A stretch of 33,198 nucleotides of DNA from Candidatus Rokuibacteriota bacterium (GTDB lineage Bacteria; Methylomirabilota; Methylomirabilia; Rokubacteriales; CSP1-6): positions 1-33,198 of the forward strand of contig JBOHQB010000074.1 in the NCBI GenBank assembly GCA_050731995.1, read 5' to 3'. This document shows, in pieces, positions 6,459-30,027 of this stretch (within the stretch, counting starts at the first letter, position 1; every line of letters begins with the position of its first letter). Under the pieces are notes generated by a model. It made no database searches and was not told the DNA's origin. It saw nothing but the letters and a program-made list of their open reading frames with translations. Position numbers and translations under genes: made by a program.

Positions 6459-6468
6459 TGGAGGGCTC

Positions 6469-10020: not shown

Positions 10021-11379
10021 ATGAACCGGCGCACCGGAGGGACGTGGGACGTGGTGATCGCCGGCGGCGGCGTGGCCGGCGTATCGGTGGCCGCCGCGCT
10101 GGGCGAGTTCGGCTATCGCGTCCTGCTCGTCGAGCCGGGCCTCAACGGCGCCAAGCGGCTCGCCGGCGAGCTGATCCATCCCCCCGGTGTCAGTGACCTC
10201 GCCGACCTCGGGCTGCTGGCGCCGCTCGAGCGGATCGGCGTGGCACCGGTCCTCGGCTTCGCGGTCTCGCCGCACGCGGACGCGGCGCCCTATCTGCTCC
10301 CCTACGGCGCGATCCCCGGCGTCCGGCGCCGTGGTTTCGCGCTGGACCACGCGGTGCTCACCGTCACGCTGTTCGCCGCCGCCAAGCAACTGCCGCACGT
10401 CACGACGTGGCAGGACGCGCGCGTGTGCGACCTGGACCTGACGCCGGACGGCGCGACCGTGCTGATCGCGCGTCCGAACGGTCCGACATCCGTGCGCGCG
10501 CGGCTCGTCGTCGCGGCGGACGGCGGCGCGTCCACCGTACGCCGCCTGGCGTCCATCGCGCACACGCGCGTCCGCCTCTCGCACATGCTCGGCGTGCAGC
10601 TCCCGGGCCCCCTGCCCGAGGCGGGCTTCGGCAACGTGTTCCTCGGCGGCCCCGCCCCGGTGCTCGCGTACGCGATCGACGACGTCACGGCGCGCGTGAT
10701 GTTCGACGTCCCCGGCAACCCCGACGGCATCGCCGCCGTCCGTCGCGATCCCGCGTACCTGGCCGCCCTGCCCCGCGAGTTCCGTGAGCGCGTGCGCGCC
10801 GCCGTCCACGCCGAGCCGGGTCTCGTGTGCGCGAACTACTGCGTCGTTCCCGAGGCGGTCGCCACCGGTTGCGTGGTGCTCGTCGGCGACGCGGCCGGCT
10901 CCTGCCACCCGCTCACGGCTACGGGGCTCAGCGCCTGCACGCGCGACGCGATCCGCCTCCGGCAGGCCCTGCGCGAGGCCGACGGCGACATTCCGCTCGC
11001 GGTCCGCCGCTACGCGCGCGCCCGCGGCGGGCCGCAGCGCACCCGGGTCGCGCTCGCCGAGGCGCTCTACCGGGCCTTCGCCGACCCGTCGGACGAGATG
11101 CGGCTCCTGCGCAACGGAATCTTGAAATTCTGGCAGCGCAGTCGCCGCGGCCGTGCGGCCTCGATGGCGCTCCTCTCCACGCACGAAGGGCGCATGTCGG
11201 TCATGGCGGTGCAATACGCGCGCGTGCTGGGTTACGCGCTCACCGGGCTTGTCCGTCTCCGCGGTGACGGGCGGGCGCGCTCGCCGCTCGCGCGCGCCCG
11301 CGCCGTGATGCGGCTTACCCGCGCGGCCCTCGGCCTGCTCGCGCAGGCGTACAGGGGCCGGCGTCTCCGGCACACCTGA
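10021..11379 (+). CDS. sqmo: Squalene monooxygenase / squalene epoxidase (ERG1/SQLE family flavoprotein)
   Basis: 452 aa. DVVIAGGGVAGVSVAAAL Rossmann motif. GELIHPPG (compare eukaryotic GELLQPGG). VVAADGGASTVRR. VLVGDAAGSCHPLTATGLS (compare GDAxNMRHPLTGGGMT). Starts 1 nt after the RND stop. Confidence 0.8.
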   Translation: MNRRTGGTWDVVIAGGGVAGVSVAAALGEFGYRVLLVEPGLNGAKRLAGELIHPPGVSDLADLGLLAPLERIGVAPVLGFAVSPHADAAPYLLPYGAIPGVRRRGFALDHAVLTVTLFAAAKQLPHVTTWQDARVCDLDLTPDGATVLIARPNGPTSVRARLVVAADGGASTVRRLASIAHTRVRLSHMLGVQLPGPLPEAGFGNVFLGGPAPVLAYAIDDVTARVMFDVPGNPDGIAAVRRDPAYLAALPREFRERVRAAVHAEPGLVCANYCVVPEAVATGCVVLVGDAAGSCHPLTATGLSACTRDAIRLRQALREADGDIPLAVRRYARARGGPQRTRVALAEALYRAFADPSDEMRLLRNGILKFWQRSRRGRAASMALLSTHEGRMSVMAVQYARVLGYALTGLVRLRGDGRARSPLARARAVMRLTRAALGLLAQAYRGRRLRHT

Positions 11380-11393
11380 GCGCCCGTCTCAGG
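11375..11393. terminator. Short hairpin at the convergent operon junction (possible bidirectional terminator)
   Basis: CCTGAG (11375-11380) and CTCAGG (11388-11393) form a 6-bp stem around the 7-nt loop cgcccgt. The stem includes both stop codons (TGA 11377-11379 on plus, TGA 11391-11389 on minus). No U-tract. Confidence 0.2.
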
Positions 11394-13356
11394 CCGCCCG
11401 CGCCGTCGCGCGGTCCGGCCCGGCTTGGCGCGCATAGCGCGCGAGCGCCCAGGCCGGGAAGTAGGCCGAGTACAGCCGATAGTCCAGCATCGCAGTGCCG
11501 AAGAAAACGCCGTTGACGGAGCCGGCGGGCCATCCTCCGTTCGCCTCCTGTCGCGCGCACAGCCAGTCGATGCCCCGCTCGACCGACGCGTGGGTGGCGC
11601 CGACGACGTCGAGCAGTGCGAGCAACGCCCACGCGGTCTGCACCGGCTGGCTGAGGGCGTGCTCGACGTAGCGGTCGTGCAGACATCCCGACCAGTGCTC
11701 CCCCCAGCCGCCGTCCGGACGCTGCCGCGCGACGAGCCACTCGGCGGCGCGAACCAGGGCGAGGTCATCGGCCGCCACGCCGGCGCCGCGCAGCCCCGCG
11801 ACGAAGTGGAAGGCGCCGTACGTGAAATTGATGCCCCACGCTCCCGTGATCGCGCCGTCGACGCGCTGGCTCGCGCGGAGGAATCGAACGCCTCGCTCGA
11901 TCGCCGGCGCGACGCCCGGCACCAAGGTCGGGTCGCGCCGTCCGAGTCGCGCGAGCGCCGACACGCACGAGGCGGTGCATTCGATGTACGAGCGCTCTGT
12001 CATGCAGCGACCGAACATCTCGGACGCGTTGAGCCGCTCGAGCCACGGGCCGCCGCGGCGCGGCTCGTAAGTCCCAAAACCGCCATCGCGGTTCTGGCGG
12101 GCGAGGATGAATCGGGCCGCGAGGGCCAGCCGTGTCGCCGGCGTCCGTTCGGACTGGGGGATGACCGGCTCCGCGCTCAGCAGCGCGCTCACCGCCTCGG
12201 CGGTGCAATCGCTCACCGGCCAGCGATGGACCCCGTCGGAGAAGCACCAGCCGCCCGCGGTCGGCTCGCGGTCCTGCTCTCGCCAACGCGGCAGCTCGCT
12301 CGTGAGCTGCGTGTCGCGCAGGAATCCGTAGCCGCGCCGGACGGCCGCGGCGTGCGCCGGCTCGTCGCCCGTCGTGAGCGCGCGGAGCGCGAAGGCGGTG
12401 TCCCAGGCGTTCGAGCGGGCCCCGGCGTAGCGGATTCCGCCCGCGTCCTCCCAGCGCCAGCCTTCGAGGCCGTCCAGGCTGGCGGCCAGCGCCGGGTCGG
12501 CCGGATCGTGCGCCCACAGCGACAGGCAGTCGAGGACCGCGTTGACCGGCGACAAGCCGAGCCACCGGCTCTCGCGCTGCTCGTAGCGGATGCGATCGAG
12601 GCACGCGTCGAGCGCGCGCCGGCGCAGCCTGACGGGAGTCACGCGGTCCACGCCGGACAGCACCGACGCCGCCACGCGCAGACCGGGGCCCGGACGCACG
12701 TACAGGTCGCTCGCCGCCACGTCGTGGCGGTGGGCCGCGAAGTCGAGGGTCGCGTACGGCTCCGCGTAGAGCTCCTCGCGCAGCGCCGCGCCGAGGGGTC
12801 CGAGGTCGGCGGTGACTCGCCGCCCGTACACATAGGCCACCGCCAGATAGATGTAGCGCGTGTGGCAGTACCAGCGGGCCGGGTGGAACGGGAGGAGCCG
12901 CGGCAACGCGTAGAGCTCGGGCAGCACCGGCGTGACGCCGGCCCAGCCGTAGAGCCCGAGCAGCGCAAGCCAGAGCTTGCCCCACGTGGGGATCGCCAGC
13001 ACGCCGCCCGCCTGTCCCCGCAGCCAGCCGCGCGCGTCGGCGACGAGCGGCTCGTCGCGCTCGAGGCCGAGCAGCCGCAGCGCGACGTACACCAGCGTGG
13101 TGACGAAGACGTACCCCGCCGACTCCGGATGAAGGCCCCACGCGCCGTCGGCCGTTCGCACTCCGCGCAGGTAGCGAACGATCCCCGCACGGGTCGCCGC
13201 GCCGACCGGACGCCCGACGACGTGGCGGACGATGACGACCTGGGCCGTGATCATCGGGCACCACACCACCTCGCCCTCCCAGTCGCCGCGCGGTGACTGC
13301 AGCGTCACGAGGCGGGCGAGGGCGCTATCGCGCGCGGCGGCGGCGGCCGCGAGCAT
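11389..13356 (-). CDS. osc: Oxidosqualene cyclase (lanosterol/cycloartenol/parkeol synthase type terpene cyclase)
   Basis: The listed ORF reaches 13476, but Met41 at 13356 overlaps the upstream stop by 1 nt (TGATG), giving 655 aa. OSC-type catalytic motif WPVSDCTAEA at 12196-12222, not the SHC-type DxDDTA. Multiple QW repeats (RFLRASQRVDGAITGAWG, EWLVARQRPDGGWGE, DWLCARQEANGGWP, FILARQNRDGGFG). Confidence 0.9.
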   Translation of the reverse strand: MLAAAAAARDSALARLVTLQSPRGDWEGEVVWCPMITAQVVIVRHVVGRPVGAATRAGIVRYLRGVRTADGAWGLHPESAGYVFVTTLVYVALRLLGLERDEPLVADARGWLRGQAGGVLAIPTWGKLWLALLGLYGWAGVTPVLPELYALPRLLPFHPARWYCHTRYIYLAVAYVYGRRVTADLGPLGAALREELYAEPYATLDFAAHRHDVAASDLYVRPGPGLRVAASVLSGVDRVTPVRLRRRALDACLDRIRYEQRESRWLGLSPVNAVLDCLSLWAHDPADPALAASLDGLEGWRWEDAGGIRYAGARSNAWDTAFALRALTTGDEPAHAAAVRRGYGFLRDTQLTSELPRWREQDREPTAGGWCFSDGVHRWPVSDCTAEAVSALLSAEPVIPQSERTPATRLALAARFILARQNRDGGFGTYEPRRGGPWLERLNASEMFGRCMTERSYIECTASCVSALARLGRRDPTLVPGVAPAIERGVRFLRASQRVDGAITGAWGINFTYGAFHFVAGLRGAGVAADDLALVRAAEWLVARQRPDGGWGEHWSGCLHDRYVEHALSQPVQTAWALLALLDVVGATHASVERGIDWLCARQEANGGWPAGSVNGVFFGTAMLDYRLYSAYFPAWALARYARQAGPDRATARAA

Positions 13357-14429
13357 CAGGAGTGCGCGGGTGCGGCGCCCGCCAAATACTCCTCCCACTT
13401 CTTCACGGTGAGCTGCTGGAAGAGGCCGACCGCCGGGTTGAGGTCGGGCACCGGCCGATCGTGGTGCGTCTCCCACCCGCGCTGCTCGGCCTCCACGGCG
13501 AAGCCGTCCTGGGCGAGCAACGGGTGGATGAGGACCCGGTTGGAGATCCGGAGCACGAGCGTCATCAGCCGACGTGGGATGCGGAGTGGCGTGAGCGGGA
13601 TCCTGAGCGATTCAAAATAGAAGAGGAAAAACGTCCGGGTCGTGCTCTCGTCGATCGGCAGGAAGAAGCACCAGTGCTTGATCTTGCCGTCCGTGTTCGA
13701 CCACTGGTACGGGTACTCGTAGCAGAGATCCATCGCGTTCGTATTCACACGACGCCGGTCCACGAACAGTCCCGAGATCCGGCCGCGCCCGACGCGCGTA
13801 TCGTAGGAGACGTGGACGGCGTCGCCGACCCGCTCGCAGCGGGTGAGCCGCGCGTCCTCGAACGGCCGGTATTTGCGGTGCAGCCACGCATGGGTGAAAT
13901 CGCTCACGTTGTCGACGACCATCGAGTGGTGCGCACGCCACGTGAAGTCGAGCGGCACGCACGCCCAGCGCCCGGGGTCCTCGAGCTCCGGGATATCGGG
14001 AATCGATCGACGGTCGGCCCGCGCGGGATCGCCCGGGTAGACCCAGACGAGGCCGTAGCGCGCCTTCACGGGGTACGTGCGCAGCGTGACCTTCGGCAAC
14101 GGGCGGCCGAACAGCTCGTGAGGCACGTGCGCGAGTCGGCCGGTCCCATCGTACGCCCAGCCATGATAGGCGCACGTCAGCCGGCAGTCCTCCACGCTGC
14201 CGAGCGTCAGCTTCAGCTGACGGTGGGCGCAGCGGTTCTCGACCGCGTGGAGCGCGCCGTCTTCGTCGCGCCACAGCGCGATCGACTGCCCCCAGAACTG
14301 AGTCTCGACGACGGCGCCGGGTTGCACCGCGCGGTCGTACTCGACCGCGTACCAATAGTCCGGATGCAGGCCGGCCGCGCGGGCCTTCTCGCGCAGGTTG
14401 CGCGCCTCGGCGAACGACGGGCCGCTCAC
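13356..14429 (-). CDS. Rieske [2Fe-2S] non-heme-iron oxygenase, SdmA-like (candidate sterol C-4 methyl oxidase), paralogue 2
   Basis: The 661-aa listed ORF is an artefactual 5' extension. The GTG at 14429 overlaps the upstream stop (GTGA) and aligns with the Met start of the paralogue, giving 357 aa. Rieske motif CAHRQLKLTLGSVEDCRLTCAYHGW. Mononuclear-iron motif DNVSDFTHAWLH. Confidence 0.8.
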   Translation of the reverse strand: MSGPSFAEARNLREKARAAGLHPDYWYAVEYDRAVQPGAVVETQFWGQSIALWRDEDGALHAVENRCAHRQLKLTLGSVEDCRLTCAYHGWAYDGTGRLAHVPHELFGRPLPKVTLRTYPVKARYGLVWVYPGDPARADRRSIPDIPELEDPGRWACVPLDFTWRAHHSMVVDNVSDFTHAWLHRKYRPFEDARLTRCERVGDAVHVSYDTRVGRGRISGLFVDRRRVNTNAMDLCYEYPYQWSNTDGKIKHWCFFLPIDESTTRTFFLFYFESLRIPLTPLRIPRRLMTLVLRISNRVLIHPLLAQDGFAVEAEQRGWETHHDRPVPDLNPAVGLFQQLTVKKWEEYLAGAAPAHS

Positions 14430-15496
14430 GCCGGAACCCCGGCGGACCCGGCCCGGGCCAGGTGCGCCTCCCACTTCCGAATGGTGAGCCGGTGGAGCAG
14501 GGCGACGGCCGGATTCAGCTCGACGAGGGGCGCGTCCCAGTGGGCCTCGTAGCCGCGCTGCTCCGCTTCCAGCGCCACGCGGTCCTGATCGAGGAGCGAG
14601 CGTACGAACGGCTGGATCGCGGCGAGGACCCACCGGAGGGCCCGGTGCGGCGGCGACACCGGCAGCCCCGGCACGCGGAGCCGGTCGTAGGCCATCACGA
14701 AGAAAACGCGCGTGGTGCGGACGTCCATCGGCAGCAGAAACGTCCAGTACCTGATCTGCCCGCGGATGCCCGACCACTCGAACGCCGCCCAATGGTACGG
14801 GTACTCGAAACATATCGTCATCGGTGACGGAGCCACGTCGTGCCGCACGCGGGGCCCCACCTTCGCCTCGTAGCGCAGGAGGACGCGGTCGTCCGTGGCG
14901 TCCCAGTCGAGCAACCGCCCCGGCTGGAACGACGCGAACCTCCGGTGCAGGTGCGCGTGCGTCAGATCGCAGAGGTTGTCCATCACCATCGAGTGATGCG
15001 CGCGCCACGTGAAGTCGATCGGCACATACGCCCACGGTTCGGAGCCCTCGAGCACCGGCACCTCCGGCAGCGGGACGCGCGCGGCCAGCGTGGGGTCGCC
15101 CGGGAAGATCCAGATCAACCCGTAGCGCTCGAGGACGGGATAGTGGCGGATGTGCACGGACGGCATCGAGTGCCCGAACCGGTCGTGGGGCACGTCCACG
15201 AGCCGTCCGGCGTCGTCGTACGTCCAGCCGTGATAGGCGCAGGCCAGGCGGCAGCCCTCCACGCTGCCGAGCGAGAGCGGCAGCTGGCGATGGGCGCAGC
15301 GGTCCTCGAGCGCGTGCACGCGGCCGTCGGTATCCCGCCACAGGACGATGGCCGCGCCCCAGAACGAGGTGGCGCGGATCGCGCGCAGCGGCAGCCTGCG
15401 CTCGTATTCGACCGCATACCAGTGATTCGGATCGAGCCCGGCCGCGCGGACCTTCTGGCGCAAGCCGACGGCGTCGGCGAACGCCGGCGGCGTCAT
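14426..15496 (-). CDS. Rieske [2Fe-2S] non-heme-iron oxygenase, SdmA-like (candidate sterol C-4 methyl oxidase), paralogue 1
   Basis: The ATG at 15496 overlaps the CYP51 stop (ATGA), giving 356 aa. CAHRQLPLSLGSVEGCRLACAYHGW and DNLCDLTHAHLH motifs. Collinear with the downstream paralogue along its whole length. Confidence 0.8.
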   Translation of the reverse strand: MTPPAFADAVGLRQKVRAAGLDPNHWYAVEYERRLPLRAIRATSFWGAAIVLWRDTDGRVHALEDRCAHRQLPLSLGSVEGCRLACAYHGWTYDDAGRLVDVPHDRFGHSMPSVHIRHYPVLERYGLIWIFPGDPTLAARVPLPEVPVLEGSEPWAYVPIDFTWRAHHSMVMDNLCDLTHAHLHRRFASFQPGRLLDWDATDDRVLLRYEAKVGPRVRHDVAPSPMTICFEYPYHWAAFEWSGIRGQIRYWTFLLPMDVRTTRVFFVMAYDRLRVPGLPVSPPHRALRWVLAAIQPFVRSLLDQDRVALEAEQRGYEAHWDAPLVELNPAVALLHRLTIRKWEAHLARAGSAGVPA

Positions 15497-16881
15497 GACG
15501 GAACCGCCGTCAGCGCAGGCGCTGTCACCGTCACACGGAGGCGCCGGCGGTAGCGCACGATGCACGGTGGCCGGGGCCCGACGACGAACGTCGAGTAGTC
15601 CGGGCGGTGGCCGGTGCGCACCGGCGTGAGGTCGAAGCGCCGGAGCAGCACCGACCAGATGACCTTGATCTGCTGCTCGGCAAAGGTCGAGCCGATGCAG
15701 CGGTGGTGTCCGCCGCCGAAGCCGATCAGCGCGTGCTTCACGGCGCGATCCTCCTGCCGCCCGGGACCGAAGCGATCGGGATCGTACCGATCGGGATCGC
15801 GAAAGACCCCGGCGATTCGGTGGCCGGCGGCCGGCGAGACCATCGCCAGATCGCCAGCGGGGACGATGTACTCGCCGTACGCGATCTCGCGGAGGACCCG
15901 TCGCATGAGCATGACGAGCGGCGGATGCATCCGCTCGGCCTCCTTGATGCACCGCTCCAGCGCGACCAGCCGCCGCAGCGCCGCCAGGTCCACGATCCGC
16001 CCGTCGGGCAGCACCTCGCGCTGCTCGGCCAGCACGGCGGGCAGGTGCTCGGGGTGCTCGAGCAGCAGCAGGCCGGTCCAGACGCTCATGATCGCGCTCG
16101 TGTGCTGGCCGGCGAAGATGGTCCCGAGCAGGAGGCCCGTGATCTCGTCGTCGGAGAGCGGCCGGCCGTCGCTGTAGCGGGCGGCCATGAGCGTCTGGAG
16201 GAAGTCCTCTCCTTCGACCCCGCGTTCGCGCCGCTCAGCGATGACGCCGGCGATCAGGGCCGCCACCTGCGCCCGGGCACGGTCGCGGCGGCGGAAGGCC
16301 GGCAGCGGCAGATGCGGGTTGAAGAACGCGATCAGGTTGATGCCGCGCTCGAGGTCATGATAGAGGTGCGCGAACTCCTGCGTCACCCGCCGCCGCATCT
16401 CGTCGCCGATGAGGCATCTCGTGGCGATGAACACCGTCAGCTCGTTCATCGCCACGGCCAGGTCGATCTCTCCGGCGTCGCCCCACGTATCGGTGTACGC
16501 CTCGGTCTCCTCCTGCATGACGCGCGCGTACGTCCGCAGGCGGTCGTCGCGCAGCGCGGGGAAGAGAAAGCCCATCTGCTCGTCGAAGACCGGCGGCGTC
16601 GCATCGTAGACCACGCCACGGCCAAAGATGGGCACGGTGAACCGATAGACCTCGCGCGCGCTCAGCTGGTCCTCGGGTGCGCCGAAGAACGCCGCGTGCG
16701 CGCGCGGTCCCAGGAAGGCCGTCACCCGCGTCCCCGGAAGGCGGAACGAGAACAGGTCGCCGAATCGCGCGTGCCCGTCCCGGAGGAGGCGGGCCGGGTC
16801 GCGCCGGAGCGCCGGCGCATGGCCGAGGAGCGGCCAGCCGCCGGACAGCATTGGGGGACGCCGATTGCGATGGGCGCTCAC
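15493..16881 (-). CDS. cyp51: Cytochrome P450 sterol 14-alpha-demethylase (CYP51 family)
   Basis: 462 aa. CYP51 signatures are present: FGRGVVYDA (B'-C region), helix I FAGQHTS, ExxR (EAER) and heme-Cys loop FGGGHHRCIG. ATGA overlap with the upstream SDR stop. Confidence 0.9.
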   Translation of the reverse strand: MSAHRNRRPPMLSGGWPLLGHAPALRRDPARLLRDGHARFGDLFSFRLPGTRVTAFLGPRAHAAFFGAPEDQLSAREVYRFTVPIFGRGVVYDATPPVFDEQMGFLFPALRDDRLRTYARVMQEETEAYTDTWGDAGEIDLAVAMNELTVFIATRCLIGDEMRRRVTQEFAHLYHDLERGINLIAFFNPHLPLPAFRRRDRARAQVAALIAGVIAERRERGVEGEDFLQTLMAARYSDGRPLSDDEITGLLLGTIFAGQHTSAIMSVWTGLLLLEHPEHLPAVLAEQREVLPDGRIVDLAALRRLVALERCIKEAERMHPPLVMLMRRVLREIAYGEYIVPAGDLAMVSPAAGHRIAGVFRDPDRYDPDRFGPGRQEDRAVKHALIGFGGGHHRCIGSTFAEQQIKVIWSVLLRRFDLTPVRTGHRPDYSTFVVGPRPPCIVRYRRRLRVTVTAPALTAVPS

Positions 16882-17876
16882 GCCCGCGGACCGATCTTGC
16901 CGCGCCTCACGAAGTCCTCGTACGCATCGCGCACGGCATCCTCGACGGAGGTCGGCTGGTACCCGAGCTCCGTGCGCGCCTTGGTGATATCGGCGCGTCG
17001 GTGCATTCGGAGGATTCGGACCGCGCCAGGCGTGAAGCGCGGCTCCACATCAGGGGCGAGTCGGCGCACGAAGAAGTCGAGCATCTCGGCCAGACCGGCC
17101 ATCAGGGGCGGCGGCACCCGCAACCGCGGCCGGGGCCGCCCGGTGACACGCTCGTACATCGCCATCAGCTCGTCGACCGTCTTGAACTCGGTCGAGAAGA
17201 TGTATTTCTGGCCGCTTCGCCCCTTGTCCATCGCCAGCAGGTGCCCCTGAACGATGTCGCGCGCGGCGACGAACTCGAAGCCGCCCGGGACATACGCGCG
17301 CAGTCGTCCGCGCGCGAAGTCGAGGAGCAGCTGGCCCATCCGCGACGGCTTGAAGTCGTGCGGGCCCAGGATGGCGCACGAGGTCGCGATGACGACGTCG
17401 AGACCGTCCACGACGGCCTTGAGGCATTCGTGCTCCACCGCCACCTTGCTGCGCTGGTAGGGCAGCAGCGGCGCGAACGGATCGACCGGCACCGTTTCGT
17501 CGCTCGGCCGGAGCGGATCGTGGCCGACCGCGCTGAAGGAGCCGGTAACGACGACGCGCTCGACCCCCGCGTCGAGCGACGCGCGGAGCAGATGACGCGT
17601 GCCGAGCACGTTGCAGGCGTAGATCTCTTTCTGCTGGCCTTCGGCGCTCGAGACCTTGGCCGCGCAGTGGTAGACGCGCTCGCAGCCGCGGACCGCAGCC
17701 CGCGTCTCACCCGCGTCGCGAAGATCGCCCCAGACGGTCTCGACGTCGAGGCCGGCCAGCGCCTCGACGGAGGCGTGAGATCGTTCGAGAACCCTGACCT
17801 CCTGGCTCTCGTCGAGAAGGCGTCGGACCAGGTTCGCGCCGAGATGCCCACTGCCGCCCGTCACGAGCACGCGCAT
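16878..17876 (-). CDS. NAD(P)-dependent epimerase/dehydratase / 3-beta-hydroxysteroid dehydrogenase family protein (SdmB-like, candidate C-4 decarboxylase/3-ketoreductase partner)
   Basis: 332 aa. VLVTGGSGHLGANLV Rossmann motif and catalytic YQRSK (YxxxK). Extended-SDR length. First gene of a five-gene overlap-coupled operon. Confidence 0.8.
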   Translation of the reverse strand: MRVLVTGGSGHLGANLVRRLLDESQEVRVLERSHASVEALAGLDVETVWGDLRDAGETRAAVRGCERVYHCAAKVSSAEGQQKEIYACNVLGTRHLLRASLDAGVERVVVTGSFSAVGHDPLRPSDETVPVDPFAPLLPYQRSKVAVEHECLKAVVDGLDVVIATSCAILGPHDFKPSRMGQLLLDFARGRLRAYVPGGFEFVAARDIVQGHLLAMDKGRSGQKYIFSTEFKTVDELMAMYERVTGRPRPRLRVPPPLMAGLAEMLDFFVRRLAPDVEPRFTPGAVRILRMHRRADITKARTELGYQPTSVEDAVRDAYEDFVRRGKIGPRA

Positions 17877-17884
17877 GGGCTCAC

Positions 17885-17913
17885 AGAATGCACCGGCGCG
17901 CGCTCGGACTCAA
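17885..17913 (-). promoter_or_regulatory. Weak candidate promoter for the SDR-CYP51-Rieske-Rieske-OSC operon
   Basis: On the minus strand, TTGAGT (17913-17908), a 17-nt spacer, CATTCT (17890-17885), then 8 nt to the ATG at 17876. No SD is visible. Both hexamers match the consensus poorly. Confidence 0.2.
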
Positions 17914-17930
17914 CGGCCGTGTCCGGCCTC

Positions 17931-17939
17931 TGCTAGAGT
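17931..17939 (+). promoter_or_regulatory. Extended -10-like element TGcTAGAGT on the plus strand inside the 371-nt gap
   Basis: Same TGnTAGAsT form as at 2685 and 22220. It is followed 8 nt later by an ATG (17948) that opens only a 13-codon ORF. It could instead drive the 18052 ORF with a leader of about 100 nt. Confidence 0.2.
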
Positions 17940-18051
17940 GGGGCTCGATGTTCGGCCGCGCTGTCCGCCGTCGCCGAGACTTCCGTTGAGGCTTCACGAG
18001 CGCTCCTCGTCGCCGGGCACGAGGACCCGGGGCGTATCGACCGGGCGAGCG

Positions 18052-18240
18052 ATGCTCCAGAAGGCCGCCGCCGAAAGCGCGCACCCGGACGTGCTGGTCG
18101 AGCTCGCGCGCGCCTGGTTTCGCACCGGCGACTTCCGGGCACGCGCGGAGGGCGAGCGACTCACCGCGTACGAGCGCGGGAGCGAGGCGGCCCGGCGCGC
18201 GATCGCGGCGGACCCACACAGCGAGGCGCTCCCCGACTGA
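18052..18240 (+). CDS. Orphan 62-aa ORF (helical, TPR-like fragment?); possible gene remnant
   Basis: MLQKAAAESAHPDVLVELARAWFRTGDF...: G/C dominates codon position 3, so it looks coding. It lies on the opposite strand to all neighbours, and its stop is 7 nt from the GGR-like stop. The upstream part of listed ORF 17875..18240 is Arg/Pro-rich junk. Confidence 0.3.
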   Translation: MLQKAAAESAHPDVLVELARAWFRTGDFRARAEGERLTAYERGSEAARRAIAADPHSEALPD

Positions 18241-18247
18241 GTCGGCG

Positions 18248-19528
18248 TCACAGGCGCTGCGGCTCGGTCACGGGGACGGGCCCGCGCCACCACAGTCGAA
18301 TCATCTCGCCCAGGATCGGGAGCGCCACGCGCGGCCTCAGGAATGTGCGCTTCGGACGCGCGCCGGTCATGGCCTCCGCCCACTCGAGCAGGAATTCGGT
18401 GCCGCGCCGGCGCATGAGCGCCGCACAGCCGTCGAGAAAGGCGGGATAGCGCGCGGAGGCCGCCGCCATCGCCCAGGACCAGCGGAAGTCCCACCCGAAC
18501 GACGCCATCCAGCGATCCTGATACCGCTGGAGAAACGCCGCGCTGAGGTCGTGGGCCTCGAGCGCCTCGTCGAGTGTCTGGGCGGCGATCTCGCCTCCAT
18601 CCATCGCGTACTGGATGCCCTCACCCGTCAGCGGGTCGATGTGACCGGCGGCGTCGCCGATGACGAGCATGTGGTCGCCGACGCTCTGCGGCACGCCGCC
18701 GAGACGGAGCGGCGCCGCGCGCATCGGTGCCAGACGCGCGCGAGGACCGAGAGCCCGGTTGACGTACGGGTCGCCTCGCACGATCTTGTCGTGGAGCCGC
18801 TTGAGGTCGCGAAGCCCCGCCTGGCCGCCGGGAATCACGTAGCAGCACAGGTTCAGCTCTCCGCCGGCCTCCCGGAACAGCACGCAGTATCCGGGCAGAA
18901 GCTCGCGTGGATAGAACATGACGCCGTCCGAAGCGAAGTCCGTCGTGCCGGCCTCGACGTACGCGCGGCTGCACACGCCGTCGGGCGCCGTCGTCACGAC
19001 ACCGAGTGAGCGCGCGAGACGCGCGAGAGCGCCGTCCGCCGTCACCAGCGCCCGGGCCTCGTACGTCGTGGCCGGCTGCGTCGCGCAGCGCACAGTCCAC
19101 ACGCCCGAGCCCGGAGCGAAGTCGGCGCCGGCGACCGGTGAATCTTCAACGAGCGTCGCACCGGCGGAGGCCGCTGCGCGCGCCAAGCGCACATCGAGCG
19201 CGACGCGCTTGATCGCGATCACGAGCGGGCGTCGCCCGTCCTCCACCGAGCTGCCGATGTAGGCGACTCCGCGCGGACTGACGAAGCCGCCGATCTCGGC
19301 CCAATGGCCTTCGCCCGCGGCGAGCACGTCGGCCAGCACCCCCATCCGCTCGAGGTGGACCTGCGCCCGTCCGGTGACGGCGTCGCCGCAGAGCTTGTCC
19401 CGCGGGAAGCGCTCACGCTCCAGGAGCAAAACGCGCCGGCCACGGCCGGCGAGATAGTACGCGCACGTGGAGCCGGCGGGGCCGGCGCCGACGATACAGA
19501 CATCCCACGGCGACGCGGGGGCGACCAT
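18248..19528 (-). CDS. FAD-dependent oxidoreductase, geranylgeranyl reductase (GGR) family
   Basis: WDVCIVGAGPAGSTCAYYLA Rossmann motif. RERFPRDKLCGDAV (GGR-type Cys). GDAAGHIDPLTGEGIQYAM. An AGGA SD lies 5 nt before the ATG at 19528. An in-frame GTG at 19531 is an alternative start. Confidence 0.8.
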   Translation of the reverse strand: MVAPASPWDVCIVGAGPAGSTCAYYLAGRGRRVLLLERERFPRDKLCGDAVTGRAQVHLERMGVLADVLAAGEGHWAEIGGFVSPRGVAYIGSSVEDGRRPLVIAIKRVALDVRLARAAASAGATLVEDSPVAGADFAPGSGVWTVRCATQPATTYEARALVTADGALARLARSLGVVTTAPDGVCSRAYVEAGTTDFASDGVMFYPRELLPGYCVLFREAGGELNLCCYVIPGGQAGLRDLKRLHDKIVRGDPYVNRALGPRARLAPMRAAPLRLGGVPQSVGDHMLVIGDAAGHIDPLTGEGIQYAMDGGEIAAQTLDEALEAHDLSAAFLQRYQDRWMASFGWDFRWSWAMAAASARYPAFLDGCAALMRRRGTEFLLEWAEAMTGARPKRTFLRPRVALPILGEMIRLWWRGPVPVTEPQRL

Positions 19529-19573
19529 CACGTTCCTGTCTAACGTATCCGGCGTGCGCTGTCCATGACGTCC

Positions 19574-20584
19574 TCAGTAGAGGAACGGAACCATCCGCCA
19601 GCGGACACGCTCACAGTACGCGGCCCACAGCGCGCCGTACTTTTGGCGGCAGCGACGGTCGTCGCGCCGGGCGCGGTGGAGGAAGAAGAAGGTCAGCCAG
19701 AGCGCGGGCAGGTACGGCACCGGTGACGCAAGCCCGCACGGCAGCGTCCACGCATAGTAGAGGATCAGCTCGCCGGTGTAGTTGAGCTTGCGGCCGATAC
19801 CCCAGAACCCCGAGACGAGCAGCCGGCCGCCGATCGTCTCCGGCGGCCGCCGCCAGACCGGCGCGGACGGGTCGAGCTTGAACTGGTGCTTCTGCGCGTT
19901 GGCGCCCCGGAAGAGCCAGAAGCCGAACACGTACATGGCGATGAGCCCGACGGCGGCCGGGAGCGACGGCGGGCTCACCCGGTCGACAAGATACCATCCG
20001 GGCAGGCTGTAGAAGAACGGTACCAGGACCCAGTCGCCCCAGACGAGGGCCCAGCCGAAGCGCTCCTCCAGGACATCCCAGGTGAAGCGCATCCCGTGCT
20101 CGAAGTGGAAGTAGTTCGCGACGTAGAGCAGCGTGAACGCCTCGAACAGCAGCATGGGAGTCGCCAGGCGGCCGTGGCGCTCCCACTGGGCGAAGGCGAA
20201 GCCGAGGTTGACGAGGCCGAGCGCGATCAGCGACGGGCGGTAGGCGAACATTTTGAGATCGACTCCGCGCCACACCGGAGCACGCTCCACGCCATAGAAG
20301 AAATCGAGGGCCGCCTCGCGAAGGCCGCCCTCGAGGAGGCCGCGTCCCTGGGCCCACCGGCCGCACGCGTAGAGGAGGCCGGCCGACGCGAGGGCAAGCA
20401 CGTTGGCGGCGACGAGCAGCGCGCCGAAGTGACGAATGATAGCCGACGGCGACCAGATCCCGACGGCGACGGTCGCGGCGACGGCGGCGGCCGCCACGCC
20501 GAGCAGTCGGAGCCCGCTCAGCCCGTAGCCCGAGGCCACGAAGAGCGCGCCGACGAATCCCACCACCGCCAGCGCGGCGATCAT
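19574..20584 (-). CDS. ERG4/ERG24-family sterol reductase (most plausibly Delta14-sterol reductase)
   Basis: The N-terminal 118 aa of the listed 454-aa ORF overlap the EBP-like gene out of frame and look non-coding. The ATG at 20584 overlaps the EBP-like stop (ATGA), giving 336 aa. Family signatures GIGRKLNYTGELILYYAW and FFLHRARRDDRRCRQKYGALWAAYCERVRWRMVPFLY are present. Multi-TM. Confidence 0.85.
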   Translation of the reverse strand: MIAALAVVGFVGALFVASGYGLSGLRLLGVAAAAVAATVAVGIWSPSAIIRHFGALLVAANVLALASAGLLYACGRWAQGRGLLEGGLREAALDFFYGVERAPVWRGVDLKMFAYRPSLIALGLVNLGFAFAQWERHGRLATPMLLFEAFTLLYVANYFHFEHGMRFTWDVLEERFGWALVWGDWVLVPFFYSLPGWYLVDRVSPPSLPAAVGLIAMYVFGFWLFRGANAQKHQFKLDPSAPVWRRPPETIGGRLLVSGFWGIGRKLNYTGELILYYAWTLPCGLASPVPYLPALWLTFFFLHRARRDDRRCRQKYGALWAAYCERVRWRMVPFLY

Positions 20585-21090
20585 GCTCGCGGACTCGCGA
20601 AGCGTCGGACGATCGCCGTGAAGGCGTCCCAGGCCAGCCAGGCGTGCGCGGCGAGCCACGGCAGCGTCAGGCCGTAGAAAAGCGTGAACCCCGTCGCGGT
20701 GCGCGCGCGCATCCCCGCGTAGCCGCTGAGATGACCGGCCAGCAGGTAGAGGATGCACGAGTACGCGACGTAGGCGCCGAGCGCCAGCTGCAGCGCGTGG
20801 CGCCAGGGCGCACCGCGCAGGATGCCAGCGATGAGGACGATGTTCACGAGCGTCGTCACGAAGACGTTGAACCCTTCTTGCGCGAGCGACCAGGGCGAGG
20901 CGATCCAGAACCGGTCCGCGTCGGCATAAAGGGCCCACAGGTCCGCGGCCCAGTCGGAGCCCACGAGTTGAGGCAGATCACGCCCACGCCGGACCAGCGC
21001 CCAGTCGAGCGTCACGTTGAAAGCGGAGAAGAACAGGAGCAGCCCGATACTGACGCGATCCCGCGTAGCGAGCGAGGCCGCGGCCGGCAT
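20581..21090 (-). CDS. EBP/EXPERA-family small membrane protein (candidate sterol Delta8-Delta7 isomerase)
   Basis: 169 aa from the ATG at 21090 (in-frame GTG at 21093). By eye it is collinear with human EBP: LWALYADADRFWIASPWSLAQEGFNVFV...APWRHALQLALGAYVAYSCILYLL against [28 protein letters not shown]...[24 protein letters not shown]. It lacks the first TM of the eukaryotic protein. Confidence 0.6.
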   Translation of the reverse strand: MPAAASLATRDRVSIGLLLFFSAFNVTLDWALVRRGRDLPQLVGSDWAADLWALYADADRFWIASPWSLAQEGFNVFVTTLVNIVLIAGILRGAPWRHALQLALGAYVAYSCILYLLAGHLSGYAGMRARTATGFTLFYGLTLPWLAAHAWLAWDAFTAIVRRFASPRA

Positions 21091-21097
21091 CACGCCG

Positions 21098-25642: not shown

Positions 25643-26482
25643 GTGACCCAGGAACGTCTGCCCGACTATCGCGTGAAGGCGCGGAACACATCCGCGAGCT
25701 CGGAGAACAAGATCCACGACGACGAGGTCGCCCGCCGCTACGGCTTCCGCGGCGGTCTCGTGCCCGGCGTCACCGTCTACGCCTACATGACGCATCCGCT
25801 CGCCGAGGCGTTCGGAGCGGCGTGGCTCGAGCGCGGCACCGCCAGCGTGCGCTTCGTCAAACCGGTCCTCGACGGCGAGGAGGTCACGATCGCCGGGACG
25901 GTGACCGCACGCGACCCCCGGGGCGTGAGCGCCTCGGTCACCCTGTCGACGGCGTCTACGGGCGAGTGCGCGGTGCTGACGGCGACCCTGCCCGCCGGCA
26001 CGCCGACGCCGGTGAATGCGGCGCTCTACCGCGCGGCGCCGCTCCCGGCGGAGCGCCCGGCGGCGTCGCGCGAGCACCTCGCGTCGCTCGAGGTGCTCGG
26101 GACGCCCGTGGCCACGTACGACGAGGCGGAGGCGACCGAGTACACGCGGAAGGTGAGCGACTCGCTGCCGCTCTACCTCGGCACGGCCGGGCGCGTCCAC
26201 CCGGCGTTCCTCCTCCACCAGTCCAACGCCGCGCTGTCCAAGAACGTCCGTCTGGGGCCGTGGATCCACGCCGGCAGCGTCGTGCGTCACCTGGGCGGGG
26301 CGCGTATCGGCGAGACCCTCGCCACGCGCGGCCGCGTGCGCTCGCTCTTCGAGAAGAAGGGCCGCGAGTTCGTCGAGGCGGACCTCGTGGTCTTCGCGAT
26401 CGGGGCCGGTGAGCGCGCGCGGCCCGTCGCCCACGTGCTGCACACCGCCATCTACCGGCTGCCGGCGCCCACGGACGCCTGA
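25643..26482 (+). CDS. Double hotdog-fold MaoC-like (enoyl-CoA) hydratase/dehydratase
   Basis: 279 aa with a GTG start. N-terminal hotdog with SENKIHDDEVARRYGFRGGLVPGV. Second hotdog domain VHPAFLLHQSNAAL...GRVRSLFEKKGREFVEADLVVF. Confidence 0.7.
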   Translation: MTQERLPDYRVKARNTSASSENKIHDDEVARRYGFRGGLVPGVTVYAYMTHPLAEAFGAAWLERGTASVRFVKPVLDGEEVTIAGTVTARDPRGVSASVTLSTASTGECAVLTATLPAGTPTPVNAALYRAAPLPAERPAASREHLASLEVLGTPVATYDEAEATEYTRKVSDSLPLYLGTAGRVHPAFLLHQSNAALSKNVRLGPWIHAGSVVRHLGGARIGETLATRGRVRSLFEKKGREFVEADLVVFAIGAGERARPVAHVLHTAIYRLPAPTDA

Positions 26483-26542
26483 CCGGTTGCCGGGGCGAGG
26501 ACCCCGTGCTAGAAACGCTCATTCCCCGCGAGGAGGCGGACG

Positions 26543-27748
26543 ATGGACCTGAATCCCACCCCTGAGGAGCGCGCCTTCCGGAGCGAAGTCCGGCGCTGGC
26601 TCGAGGCGAACATTCCCCGAGACGAGCTGAAGACCCTCGACGAGCGCAAGGCGTGGCACCGGAAGCTCTACGAGGCGGGATACGTCGGCATGCTGTGGCC
26701 CAAGGACTACGGCGGCTGGGGCCGCACGCCGATGCAGCAGGCGATCGTGCAGGACGAGATGGCCCGGCTCAGCGCGCCGCCGGCGATCAACGGCCTCGGG
26801 ATCGGCTTCATCGGGCCGACGATCATCGTGCACGGCACCGACGCGCAGAAGCAGCGCTACCTCAAGAAGATGCTCACGGCTGAGGAGATCTGGTGCCAGC
26901 TCTACTCCGAGCCGAACTCGGGCTCGGACCTCGCCTCGCTGCGGACGCGCGCCGACGACCAGGGCGACCACTACCTCGTCAACGGCCAGAAGATCTGGAC
27001 GTCGAGCGGGCCGATCGCGGACTGGGGCATCCTGCTCGCGCGCACGGACTCGACGGTCAGCAAGCACAAGGGCATCTCCTGCTTCCTCTTCAGCATGCGC
27101 CAACCGGGCGTCGAGGTGCGCCCCCTCAAGCAGATCACCGGCTCCTCGCTCTTCAGCGAGGTCTTCATGACCAACGCGCGGGCCGAGAAGCACGACCTCG
27201 TCGGCAGGCTCAACCAGGGCTGGGAGATCGCGCAGACGACGCTGGGCTACGAGCGCGGCGGCAACTCGCTCGGCCGCGTCACGCGGTACGCGATCGCCTT
27301 CGGCCAGCTCGTGAGGGCGACGAAGGAGCTGCGGCGCAACGGCAAGCCGCTCATCGAGGACCCGGTCATCCGACACAAGCTCGGCAAGATCTACGCCGAC
27401 CTCGAGGTCCAGCGTTACGCGGGGCTGCGCGTGCTGTCGGCGCTGAACACGAGCGACTCCCCCGGCGCCGCGTCGTCGGTCACGAAGCTCTCGTACACGG
27501 AGTTCGAGAAGCGCTACTACGAGCTCGCGCTCGAGATCCTCGGGCCCTACGGCCAGCTGACCTCGGCGCGCGAGGAGTTCGAGGAGATCGACACCTCCTC
27601 CGGCGAGCCCGGCACGTGGGCGACCGCGTTCCTCTGGTCGCGCGCCGGCACGATCTACTCCGGCTCCTCCGAGATCCAGAAGAACATCATCGGCGAGCGC
27701 GTGCTCGGCCTGCCCAAGGAAGTGCGCGCCGACCGGATCAAGGCCTGA
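26543..27748 (+). CDS. Acyl-CoA dehydrogenase family protein (first of an adjacent pair)
   Basis: 401 aa. Strong AGGAGG SD 6 nt upstream. WCQLYSEPNSGSDLASLRTRA, VNGQKIWTSSG and GSSEIQKNIIGERVLGLP blocks. Confidence 0.85.
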   Translation: MDLNPTPEERAFRSEVRRWLEANIPRDELKTLDERKAWHRKLYEAGYVGMLWPKDYGGWGRTPMQQAIVQDEMARLSAPPAINGLGIGFIGPTIIVHGTDAQKQRYLKKMLTAEEIWCQLYSEPNSGSDLASLRTRADDQGDHYLVNGQKIWTSSGPIADWGILLARTDSTVSKHKGISCFLFSMRQPGVEVRPLKQITGSSLFSEVFMTNARAEKHDLVGRLNQGWEIAQTTLGYERGGNSLGRVTRYAIAFGQLVRATKELRRNGKPLIEDPVIRHKLGKIYADLEVQRYAGLRVLSALNTSDSPGAASSVTKLSYTEFEKRYYELALEILGPYGQLTSAREEFEEIDTSSGEPGTWATAFLWSRAGTIYSGSSEIQKNIIGERVLGLPKEVRADRIKA

Positions 27749-27749
27749 C

Positions 27750-28868
27750 ATGGACTTCGCGCTCACCTCCGACCAGACTCTCTTGAAGAACTCGGCGCGC
27801 GCGTTCCTCGACGAGCACGTGAAGCCCGCGACCGTGCGCCTGCTCTGGGACGACCCGCGCGGCGAGAGCGAGACCCTGTGGAAGGAGATGGCCCAGCTCG
27901 GCTGGCTCGGCCTGTCCTTGCCCGAGGAGCACGGTGGGAGCGCCCTCGGGATGGTCGAGACGGCGGTCCTCCAGGAACAGCTCGGCCACGCCGCGTGCCC
28001 GGGTCCGTATCTCCCGACGCTGCTCGCCGCCCATGCGATCCTGGAAGCCGGCACCGACGCGCAGAAAAAGCGCTGGCTTCCCGCGGTCGCCACGGGCGCT
28101 GCGCGCGCGACGGTCGCGTTCCTCGACGCCGACACGGACTGGAGCCCCGACGCGGCGCAGACGCGCGCGGAGAAGACCTCCAGGGGCTGGCAGCTGACGG
28201 GCACCAAGCGCTTCGTACCGTGGGCCCACGTCGCCGATCTTATATTGGCGCCGGCACACACGCCCGAGGGGCTCACGCTCTTCCTCCTGGACCCGTCGGC
28301 GTCGGGGATCTCGCTCGAGCCGGCGCCCGTGATGGACGGCGCCATGCGCCTGACGACAGTCGCGCTCGACAAGACGCCGGTCGCGGGCGACGCGGTGCTG
28401 GGATCTCCCGGCCGCGCCGCTCCCGCGCTCGCCGCGCTCCTCCGTCGCGGCGCGGTCGCCGCCGCCGCCGAGCAGCTCGGCGCCGCCCGGCGCTGCCTCG
28501 ACATGGCCGTCGGCTACGCGAAGGTGCGCGAGCAGTTCGGTCAGCCGATCGGCTCGTTCCAGGCGATCCGCCACAAGTGCGCCGACATGCTGCTCGAGAT
28601 CGAGAACTCGCACTCGGCGGTCTACTACGCCGCGTGGGCGCTCGACGCCGGGGCCGACGACGCTCCGCTCGCCGCGTCCGTCGCCAAGGCCTACGTCGGC
28701 GACGCGACCCGGAAGGTCTGCGGCGAGGCGATCCAGGTGCACGGCGGGATCGGCTTCACCTGGGAGTACGACCTGCACCTCTACTTCAAACGCGCCAAGG
28801 CGCTCGAGGCCATGTACGGCGACGCGGAGTACCACCGCGAGCTGATCGTCCGCCACGTGGCGCGCTGA
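27750..28868 (+). CDS. Acyl-CoA dehydrogenase family protein (second of the pair)
   Basis: 372 aa. Starts 1 nt after the upstream stop. GWLGLSLPEEHGG, REQFGQPIGSFQAIRHKCADM and IQVHGGIGFTWEYDLHLYFKRAK blocks. Confidence 0.85.
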   Translation: MDFALTSDQTLLKNSARAFLDEHVKPATVRLLWDDPRGESETLWKEMAQLGWLGLSLPEEHGGSALGMVETAVLQEQLGHAACPGPYLPTLLAAHAILEAGTDAQKKRWLPAVATGAARATVAFLDADTDWSPDAAQTRAEKTSRGWQLTGTKRFVPWAHVADLILAPAHTPEGLTLFLLDPSASGISLEPAPVMDGAMRLTTVALDKTPVAGDAVLGSPGRAAPALAALLRRGAVAAAAEQLGAARRCLDMAVGYAKVREQFGQPIGSFQAIRHKCADMLLEIENSHSAVYYAAWALDAGADDAPLAASVAKAYVGDATRKVCGEAIQVHGGIGFTWEYDLHLYFKRAKALEAMYGDAEYHRELIVRHVAR

Positions 28869-28878
28869 GCCCCGCCCC

Positions 28879-30027
28879 GTGGGCCAGGCTCCCCCGCCGC
28901 TCGACGGCATCTGCGTCGTCGACCTGACGAGCTACATCGCCGGCTCCTACGCCGCGATGCAGCTCGCCGACATGGGCGCCGACGTGGTCAAGGTCGAAGC
29001 GCTCGAGGGCGACTCGTTCCGCGAGCTGCCCGGGTTCTTCGGCTGGAACCGTGGCAAGCGCTCGATCGCGGTGAATCTGAAGACGCCCGAGGGCGTCGAG
29101 GTCGTCGAGCGGCTCGTGGCCGGCGCCGACGTCTTCATGGAGAACATGCGCCCCGGCGTCGCCGAGCGCCTCGGTGTCGGCTGGGAGCGGCTCTCGGCGA
29201 TCAACCCCCGGCTCGTCTACTGCTCGGTGACCGCCTTCGGCTCGACCGGCCCCGGCGTCGAGCGCCCGGGCTTCGATCCGGTCTTCCAGGCGATGGGCGG
29301 CGTGATGACGCTCCAGGGCTTCGGCGGGCCGCCCCAGTATCTGCGGACCGCGCCGACCGACTACTACACGGCCGCGCTCGCGGCCCAGGCGGTCGTCGCC
29401 GCGCTCTTCGCGCGCGAGCGCACGGGCCGCGGCCAGCGCGTCGAGACGTCGCTGCTCCGCGGCGTGATGGCGCTCCAGTCGGGCATTGCCGTCGACTATC
29501 CGGCGAAGCCGACGCTGCTCCGCGACAACCCGACGTACCGTCTCTACCAGGCGGGCGACGGCCGGTGGTTCTTCCTGGCGTGCGGCAACCAATCCTTCTG
29601 GGTCAAGCTCTGCAAGGCGCTCGGCCTCGAGGAGCTGGCCGACGACCCGCGCTTCGCGTCGTGGCTCCTGCGCCTCGAGAACAACCAGGCGCTCCTGCCG
29701 CGCCTGCAAGAGACGTTCGCCTCAAAGCCCCGGGGCCACTGGCTCGAGGTCCTCGCGTCGAACGACATTCCCGCCGCGCCGGTGCAAACGATCGCCGAGT
29801 TCATGGACGACCCGGCGGTCCGCCACCACGACATGGTCCGCGAGTACGACCACCCGGAGGTCGGGCGGCTGCGCCTGATGGGCCAGCCGCTGGTCTTCGG
29901 TGACACGCCGACACGCGATCCGGGGCCGCCGCCGACGCTCGGACAGCACACCGACGAGATCATGAAGGCGCTGGGCTACGGCGACGCGGCGATCGCCGAG
30001 CTGCGCGCGAAGAGGGCCATCCGGTGA
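28879..30027 (+). CDS. Family III CoA-transferase (CaiB/BaiF/Frc type)
   Basis: 382 aa with a GTG start. PLDGICVVDLTSYIAGSYAAMQLADMGADVVKVE and ADVFMENMRPGVAERLG blocks. Confidence 0.85.
   Translation: MGQAPPPLDGICVVDLTSYIAGSYAAMQLADMGADVVKVEALEGDSFRELPGFFGWNRGKRSIAVNLKTPEGVEVVERLVAGADVFMENMRPGVAERLGVGWERLSAINPRLVYCSVTAFGSTGPGVERPGFDPVFQAMGGVMTLQGFGGPPQYLRTAPTDYYTAALAAQAVVAALFARERTGRGQRVETSLLRGVMALQSGIAVDYPAKPTLLRDNPTYRLYQAGDGRWFFLACGNQSFWVKLCKALGLEELADDPRFASWLLRLENNQALLPRLQETFASKPRGHWLEVLASNDIPAAPVQTIAEFMDDPAVRHHDMVREYDHPEVGRLRLMGQPLVFGDTPTRDPGPPPTLGQHTDEIMKALGYGDAAIAELRAKRAIR

Follow-up and report, generated by a model that had tools for sequence, protein, structure and literature searches.

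A divergent geranylgeranyl reductase-like flavoprotein in a Rokuibacteriota sterol operon is a candidate sterol side-chain reductase

The contig JBOHQB010000074.1 of a Candidatus Rokuibacteriota bacterium (assembly GCA_050731995.1), whose positions 1 to 33,198 we refer to as the window, carries a tightly packed minus-strand sterol operon with the gene order EBP-ERG24-GGR-SdmB-CYP51-SdmA-SdmA-OSC. Here, GGR stands for a geranylgeranyl reductase-like gene, a candidate sterol side-chain reductase that is the subject of this work, and OSC for oxidosqualene cyclase. We defined the operon from Pfam and NCBIfam scans and from its synteny with L089, the contig that encodes an 88%-identical homolog of the GGR-like protein, and most of its junctions are 4-nucleotide (nt) overlaps. 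Its arrangement is conserved in L089 and in L001, the closest locus from a named genome, a Candidatus Rokubacteria metagenome-assembled genome (MAG) with 82% identity and the same gene order. An original prediction, made by reading the DNA alone, had placed the GGR-like gene among sterol tailoring genes, and the conserved operon confirms that placement.

The GGR-like open reading frame (ORF) has codon-position GC values of 0.74/0.55/0.87 in a window of approximately 70% GC, as expected of a genuine coding frame; third-position GC was used to pick the true reading frames across the window. The ORF lies on the minus strand, a detail absent from the original prediction. Besides its ATG there is an in-frame GTG at 19531 that could serve as an alternative start, giving an ORF of 18248..19531 and a protein of 427 amino acids (aa). 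The stop codon of the preceding ERG4/ERG24-family gene lies at 19574-19576, so the predicted distance of 42 nt to that gene stands if counted to the GTG but becomes 45 nt if counted to the ATG. A ribosome-binding site had also been predicted, and an AGGA is indeed found 5 nt ahead of the ATG, at 19534-19537 on the minus strand. A promoter and terminator scan found no terminator-like site in the 45-nt spacer, with results no better than those for shuffled sequences.

The protein belongs to the GGR family. It scores 165 bits against the NCBIfam model TIGR02032 (“geranylgeranyl reductase family”), above the curated cut-off of 158.8, which upholds its earlier identification as a GGR-type flavin adenine dinucleotide (FAD) enzyme, while Pfam returns generic FAD domains only. 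The three motifs named in the original prediction for the 426-aa ORF, GAGPAGS, RDKLCGDAV and GDAAGHIDPLTGEGI, are all present in the translation; the first falls in the FAD-binding Rossmann GxGxxG motif (VGAGPAGS) and the last is the GD..P.TGEGI motif. Cys47, in FPRDKLCGD, aligns with the Cys of the Thermoplasma acidophilum GGR (3OZ2), and its counterpart in the Sulfolobus acidocaldarius GGR is the active-site Cys47. Among the window protein and its close relatives, which we call clade W, this catalytic Cys is invariant in 18/18 members, within a shared FPRDKxCGD motif. Members of the clade are 412-445 aa long and have a C-terminal signature, W[AG]xxMTGxxPK, in common.

A second active-site motif has been altered. 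Canonical GGRs position their substrate with YxWxFP, and in a 69-sequence alignment we found Y-x-W-x-F-P in 18/19 canonical GGR outgroups, the exception being an Actinocorallia protein (GYGWVFG) that keeps the Trp and not the Pro. Every member of clade W lacks both the Trp and the Pro. In the window protein the stretch aligned to GYIWVFP of the T. acidophilum GGR reads G-Y-C-V-L-F-R-E, so that only the Tyr and the Phe of the motif are retained. A neighbor-joining tree, midpoint-rooted and not reliable in its internal branching order, splits clade W from the canonical GGRs at 100/100 bootstrap.

The fold is likewise that of a GGR. An AlphaFold (AF2) model built from an 18-sequence alignment reached a predicted local distance difference test score (pLDDT) of 89.8 and a predicted template modeling score (pTM) of 0.91, and its best solved match at low root-mean-square deviation (rmsd) in Foldseek was the T. 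acidophilum GGR (3OZ2; TM 0.73/0.78, rmsd 3.2). Pyrrole halogenases and the flavoprotein FixC gave comparable E-values, as is to be expected of such a fold. Group A flavin monooxygenases and halogenases have this fold too and score equally with GGRs in Foldseek, and 25-hydroxycholesterol has been reported in E. salina and Calothrix. These observations would fit a flavin monooxygenase or hydroxylase that acts on the sterol, for example at C-25, and a reductase of a nuclear bond (Δ7, Δ8(14) or Δ14) can be considered alongside it. We find both very unlikely. The invariant FPRDKxCGD motif is specific to GGRs, the halogenase motif WxWxIP is absent from the sequence, a dedicated ERG24 reductase adjoins the GGR-like gene, and no C-5 desaturase is present to make a Δ5,7 substrate. 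The nuclear double bond that the original prediction had offered as an alternative target gains no support from this evidence. The halogenase or monooxygenase assignment raised by the Foldseek matches was likewise rejected on the basis of motifs; the Pfam Trp_halogenase match is partial and C-terminal (25.5 bits), with no stretch passing by itself. An assignment as squalene epoxidase was rejected as well, as the GGR-like protein has no PF08491 match and the true SE-domain gene of the window is a different one (Table 1). The protein does not match the FAD_binding_4 domain (PF01565) of DHCR24-type reductases.

Clade W is linked to sterol genes and more distant GGRs are not. Sterol genes lie within 10 kb of the clade gene in 12/12 distinct bacterial clade loci, compared to 0/70 loci of more distant GGRs from the same scan (Fisher’s exact test, p = 1.2e-14). 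The clade loci are the window, L001, L002, L003 (equal to L083), L004, L008, L009, L081, L082, L084, L085, L086 and L089, three of them (the window, L001 and L089) being closely related. Their sources are Rokubacteria-like bacteria, Gemmataceae, Alphaproteobacteria, Coxiellaceae, Myxococcota, Acidobacteria (Bryobacteraceae) and Cyanobacteria. The linkage is real and specific to the clade; co-occurrence with OSC had been proposed as a check on the original prediction, and for the protein’s own clade the outcome is strongly positive. In Calothrix, the clade gene sits mid-way in a 21-kb sterol cluster; Lee et al. 2023 validated the OSC and SdmAB of this cluster.

This linkage bears on whether the enzyme might be a conventional prenyl reductase, acting on geranylgeranyl diphosphate, polyprenyl or menaquinone side chains, squalene or oxidosqualene, and placed among sterol genes through shared isoprenoid metabolism only. 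Such a role would be in keeping with membership in the GGR family, with Asgard relatives that lack a sterol context, and with the second-best NCBIfam match of the protein, the mycobacterial menaquinone reductase MenJ (NF045655). The MenJ score of 115.8 bits is far under the model’s cut-off of 700, however, and the neighbors of the clade genes across many phyla are late tailoring genes (ERG24, EBP, sterol C-24 methyltransferase and SdmA/B), an association found at none of the canonical GGR loci. With the motif that positions linear prenyl chains also lost, a conventional prenyl reductase appears quite unlikely to us.

The identity of the nearest neighbors points to the side chain. The gene immediately beside the clade gene is ERG24 in 4 loci, OSC in 1, and a sterol C-24 methyltransferase (SMT; CMAS/Sterol_MT_C) in 6 (L003/L083, L004, L081, L082, L084 and L086), an association not mentioned in the SMT paper (PMC10070321). 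Adjacency to a C-24 methyltransferase is independent evidence that the clade enzyme acts on the side chain around C-24. It also suggests a different bond. Enzymes encoded side by side in an operon are more often sequential than competing, and with the clade gene directly beside an SMT in 6/12 loci, abutting it in L004 and overlapping it in L084, the substrate could be the Δ24(28) methylene or the Δ25(27) bond that C-24 methyltransferases produce, making the enzyme a bacterial counterpart of ERG4/DWF1. Two points speak against this. The clusters of the window, L001 and L089 contain no SMT, and no Δ24(28) substrate is therefore expected in the window pathway; in addition, the chemistry of GGRs and the one assayed sterol reductase of the family (Bsr, discussed below) concern trisubstituted isoprene bonds such as Δ24(25). 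Reduction of Δ24(28) is the most serious competing explanation for the clade as a whole, and a less likely one for the window gene; overall we judge it unlikely.

No DHCR24-like gene was found by tblastn in the window or the clade loci with a human DHCR24 query, in agreement with the original prediction for the window, although 33 kb says little about a genome. Proteins with the VAO-type FAD_binding_4 domain do occur in or next to two of the sterol clusters (L081, 16398-17864; L084, 8640-10001), and one of them has ALO and weak cholesterol-oxidase substrate-binding domains. These were rejected as DHCR24 orthologs, since the same query gave only a local match to the FAD domain (E ~1e-6).

We favor reduction of the side chain at Δ24, and put the probability that the GGR-like gene encodes a sterol Δ24 reductase at roughly 60%. 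We infer its substrate, the position of the bond and its electron donor as follows. The product would be an FAD enzyme of GGR fold, either soluble or peripherally bound to the membrane, co-transcribed with EBP and ERG24, that saturates Δ24(25), the unmodified terminal isoprene double bond of the sterol side chain. Reduced flavin would give a hydride to this trisubstituted C=C, aided by the conserved Cys47, while the remodeled motif, with Trp replaced by Val, Ala or Ser and Pro by Arg, may reshape the pocket to leave room for a tetracyclic sterol. Electrons would probably pass from NADPH to a flavodoxin- or diflavin-reductase-type partner and on to the FAD of the GGR-like enzyme. The window pathway, comprising squalene monooxygenase (SQMO), OSC, CYP51, ERG24, SdmA/B and EBP, could then end in 24,25-dihydro sterols, and its end products may be side-chain-saturated 4-desmethyl Δ8/Δ7 sterols of the type represented by zymostenol or lathosterol.

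There is precedent for this chemistry. Lee and Welander (2025, J Bacteriol, PMC12004948) showed that zymosterol and desmosterol are reduced at their C-24 double bond by Bsr (AKF09143), a GGR homolog from a sterol cluster of Sandaracinus amylolyticus. That a GGR-type flavoprotein takes the place of DHCR24 in bacterial sterol synthesis is thus already known as a general principle. Sterol reduction had been put forward as a new activity for the family, a claim that the Bsr publication (PMC12004948) overtakes; the proposal of a sterol double-bond reductase unrelated to DHCR24 was a well-supported inference that anticipates it (PMC12004948).

Early extracts of Calothrix, which carries a member of clade W, contained C-24-saturated sterols (PMC10202945). 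Several observations weigh against the Δ24 assignment. The Calothrix sterol data are not reproducible, and Bsr is only ~24% identical to the Calothrix clade member, so its function is not transferable by orthology and that of the clade is a predicted one. Clade W does not conserve YxWxFP, the substrate-positioning motif of canonical GGRs. Adjacency to methyltransferases would fit reduction of Δ24(28) equally well. Finally, the Asgard relatives (46-53% identity) lack nearby sterol genes and one eukaryotic relative comes from an anaerobe, Paratrimastix, which suggests that the wider family need not always act on sterols.

Clade W extends beyond bacteria. Asgard MAGs (Promethearchaeota, Hermodarchaeota and “Asgard group”; L005-L007, L087/L088 and P0266) encode members that form the sister group of the bacterial sterol-cluster proteins in the neighbor-joining tree, and no sterol genes were found within 10 kb of the homologs at loci L005-L007 and L087/L088. 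Eukaryotic members in the broad sense (P0267, P0268, P0269, P0279, P0280, P0287, P0292 and P0296) are 38-53% identical to the window protein and derive from Clastostelium, Cavostelium, Tetraselmis, Chloroparvula, Digyalum, Apiculatamorpha, the diatom Seminavis and Paratrimastix. Most of them have a single N-terminal transmembrane anchor. In an exhaustive search of representatives we also found natural fusions (P0274, P0276, P0284/P0414, P0295 and P0402; 40-46% identical), one of them from the labyrinthulomycete Mucochytrium quahogii, in which the GGR-like domain is joined to a complete Flavodoxin_1+FAD_binding_1+NAD_binding_1 module resembling cytochrome P450 reductase (CPR). By the Rosetta-stone principle, these fusions hint at an electron route from NADPH through a diflavin reductase to the GGR-like FAD. 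Contamination is an unlikely source of the eukaryotic members because of the transmembrane anchors and CPR fusions. More distant GGR-like domains are fused to a polyprenyl synthetase domain in two further proteins (P0360 and P0371).

GGR-type sterol reductases have been stated in the literature to be absent from eukaryotes, and for clade W, judging from these sequences, that statement is contradicted. The Seminavis and Paratrimastix proteins are annotated as “Conditioned medium factor receptor 1” (CMFR1), and their membership in the clade suggests that the CMFR1-annotated group is a misnamed eukaryotic enzyme family. We know of no enzymatic role assigned to proteins with this annotation. A broader proposal, possible but in our view doubtful, is that clade W represents a second GGR-like lineage recruited to sterol side-chain reduction apart from Bsr and now present in all three domains, whose eukaryotic members are an unrecognized sterol Δ24/Δ24(28) reductase. 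Its hallmark would be a YxWxFP motif that has lost Trp and Pro, it would be unrelated to DHCR24, and its members would be spread over Asgard archaea, a variety of protists and algae, and bacteria with sterol clusters from at least six phyla. Its eukaryotic members would be membrane-anchored, presumably in the endoplasmic reticulum, and some would bring their own fused NADPH-diflavin reductase.

Clade W is of interest chiefly as a distinct lineage that has an altered active-site motif and that extends, unexpectedly, into eukaryotes and Asgard archaea. The novel finding is the presence, in sterol clusters of many bacterial phyla, of a different and deeply diverged GGR-like lineage whose motif has been remodeled. 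If the lineage does prove to reduce sterols, side-chain saturation would have been invented at least twice within one superfamily, and the signature of clade W could help predict, from metagenomes, producers of 24-saturated or 24-alkyl sterols, the sources of sterane biomarkers. From the CPR fusions one could then suggest which reductant serves GGR-type enzymes, a question that is poorly resolved. A eukaryotic family that now bears a receptor annotation would move to sterol metabolism, with a bearing on the debate over bacterial versus eukaryotic origins of the pathway and on the identity of the side-chain reductase in the ancestral eukaryotic sterol pathway.

The remaining features of the locus are listed in Table 1. 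The ERG24-like ORF was originally read as 454 aa, which is over-extended, as its 5' part overlaps the separate EBP gene in another frame; the real gene is the 336-aa one, and its start overlaps the EBP gene by 4 nt. The EBP gene is 80% identical to that of L089. The position of the CYP51-like gene is conserved in L001 and L089, as is the tandem pair of SdmA-like paralogs (13356-15496, minus strand), which are ~49-53% identical to one another and may be specialized for the two C-4 methyl groups.

Table 1. Features of the sterol locus and its surroundings in the window.
Feature	Position	Strand	Evidence or remarks
DUF1302-like, LolA-like and RND/MMPL transporter genes	5133-10019	plus	directly upstream of SQMO
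Squalene monooxygenase (SQMO), divergent	10021..11379	plus	Pfam PF08491 SE 74.9 bits
Oxidosqualene cyclase (OSC)	11389..13356	minus	TIGR03463 2,3-oxidosqualene cyclase 869.8 bits, cut-off 851
SdmA-like Rieske oxygenase, paralog b	13356..14429	minus	best NCBIfam NF052579 (4beta-methylsterol monooxygenase SdmA) 401.9 bits, below 600 cut-off
SdmA-like Rieske oxygenase, paralog a	14426..15496	minus	Rieske + VanA_C domains
Cytochrome P450, CYP51-like sterol 14-demethylase	15493..16881	minus	Pfam p450 194.8 bits; start 16881 or 16851
SdmB-like NAD(P)-dependent reductase (C-4 demethylation)	16878..17876	minus	NF052578 SdmB 340.7 bits, below 600 cut-off; Pfam 3Beta_HSD/Epimerase
121-aa ORF	17875-18240	plus	in 371-nt GGR-SdmB gap
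GGR-like FAD flavoprotein (clade W), candidate sterol side-chain (Δ24) reductase	18248..19528	minus	ATG start, 426 aa
Spacer, ERG24 stop to ATG	19529..19573	minus	45 nt, read directly
ERG4/ERG24-family sterol reductase, probable C-14 reductase	19574..20584	minus	336 aa; PF01222 215 bits; start per syntenic L089 gene
EBP/EXPERA-family, probable sterol C-8 isomerase	20581..21093	minus	~170 aa; PF05241 31.3 bits, cut-off 25.7
MaoC-like, acyl-CoA dehydrogenase (two, adjacent), family III CoA-transferase and enoyl-CoA hydratase genes	25643-30806	plus	

In and around the operon, we observed three further features. The RND/MMPL transporter upstream of SQMO combines a sterol-sensing domain with a cyclic-nucleotide-binding domain at its C-terminus, and is conserved in L001 and L089. 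Its match to BstA is weak (24 bits vs a cut-off of 1400) and it is nearer to HpnN/HAE3; the set as a whole may be a sterol export system under cyclic-nucleotide regulation. The 121-aa ORF on the strand opposite the operon has a faint TPR match. About 280 nt of it are conserved in a longer insert that occupies the corresponding site in L001, and L089 lacks it, while the L084 cluster has a full TPR protein, and the region looks like a decaying or variable accessory gene. The genes clustered at 25643-30806 are partly conserved beside the L089 sterol cluster and recall gene sets for β-oxidation of steroid or branched side chains.

Comparison with known systems places the window protein among several enzyme groups. 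DHCR24/DWF1, the eukaryotic VAO-type sterol Δ24 reductase, would carry out the same proposed reaction with an unrelated fold (FAD_binding_4) and no homology to the window protein. The archaeal digeranylgeranylglycerophospholipid reductases (3OZ2 and, from S. acidocaldarius, 3ATQ) share its fold, the Rossmann GxGxxG, the Cys in ..CG.. and the GDAAG..P.TGEGI motif. They are only ~22% identical, however, and unlike the window protein they have the Trp and Pro of YxWxFP, act on linear C20 phospholipid chains and are encoded outside any sterol context. MenJ, which reduces the β-isoprene unit of mycobacterial menaquinone-9, provides the best-scoring equivalog model of a characterized enzyme for the window protein, several clade members are auto-annotated as MenJ by the Joint Genome Institute (JGI), and Lee and Welander placed Bsr near MenJ (PMC12004948); the score is nevertheless far below cut-off, and the context in the window is sterol rather than menaquinone synthesis. 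The CMFR1-annotated proteins fall in the same subfamily of the neighbor-joining tree and share a GY..[LIM][FLM][RK][EH] motif and the C-terminal signature. They differ from the window protein in their N-terminal transmembrane anchor, in the fusion of some to a CPR-like diflavin reductase and in being named as a receptor.

The closest functional parallel is Bsr, although the distance to it was gauged indirectly, by cross-reference to the published Table S2, a statement on motifs, gene lengths and a C-terminus derived from primers. Relatives of the window protein at 57-88% identity include P0068 of Calothrix sp. NIES-4071, which is 58% identical and by exact look-up matches BAZ57897 of Calothrix NIES-4105. 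In Table S2, BAZ57897 appears as a Bsr homolog with 24% identity and an E-value of 9e-17 (PMC12004948). Homologs at 41-62% identity to Bsr in that table are ~365-385 aa long, judged from their coordinates (PMC12004948), and Bsr homologs are reported to retain YxWxFP (PMC12004948). The primer-derived termini of Bsr read MAEKIDAN... and ...RLMAQM, and neither matched any of the sequences collected for this analysis. A degenerate DNA pattern search for Bsr in JGI metagenomes gave 11 matches, all irrelevant, and a chimeric motif query yielded short protein fragments only. A search seeded with an Archangium GGR led to a third, unrelated type of GGR; the member of the C. fuscus cluster found in this way (P0241, WP_002622101) is not the Table S2 homolog (WP_002620997).

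Bsr and the window protein are both GGR-family FAD enzymes encoded within bacterial sterol clusters that lack a canonical DHCR24, both keep the catalytic Cys, and both have the same proposed role in saturating the sterol side chain. They differ in length, with clade W longer than the Bsr type and ending in the W[AG]xxMTGxxPK signature, and in the active-site motif, which is GYCxLFRE in the window clade where Bsr homologs are said to keep YxWxFP. Bsr is also said to be absent from eukaryotes, whereas clade W has eukaryotic and Asgard members, and Bsr has been assayed, whereas a role for clade W is predicted from sequence and context. The window protein is probably not an ortholog of Bsr, and is best regarded as a variant, diverged and with a predicted function, of the GGR-type sterol side-chain reductase already known.

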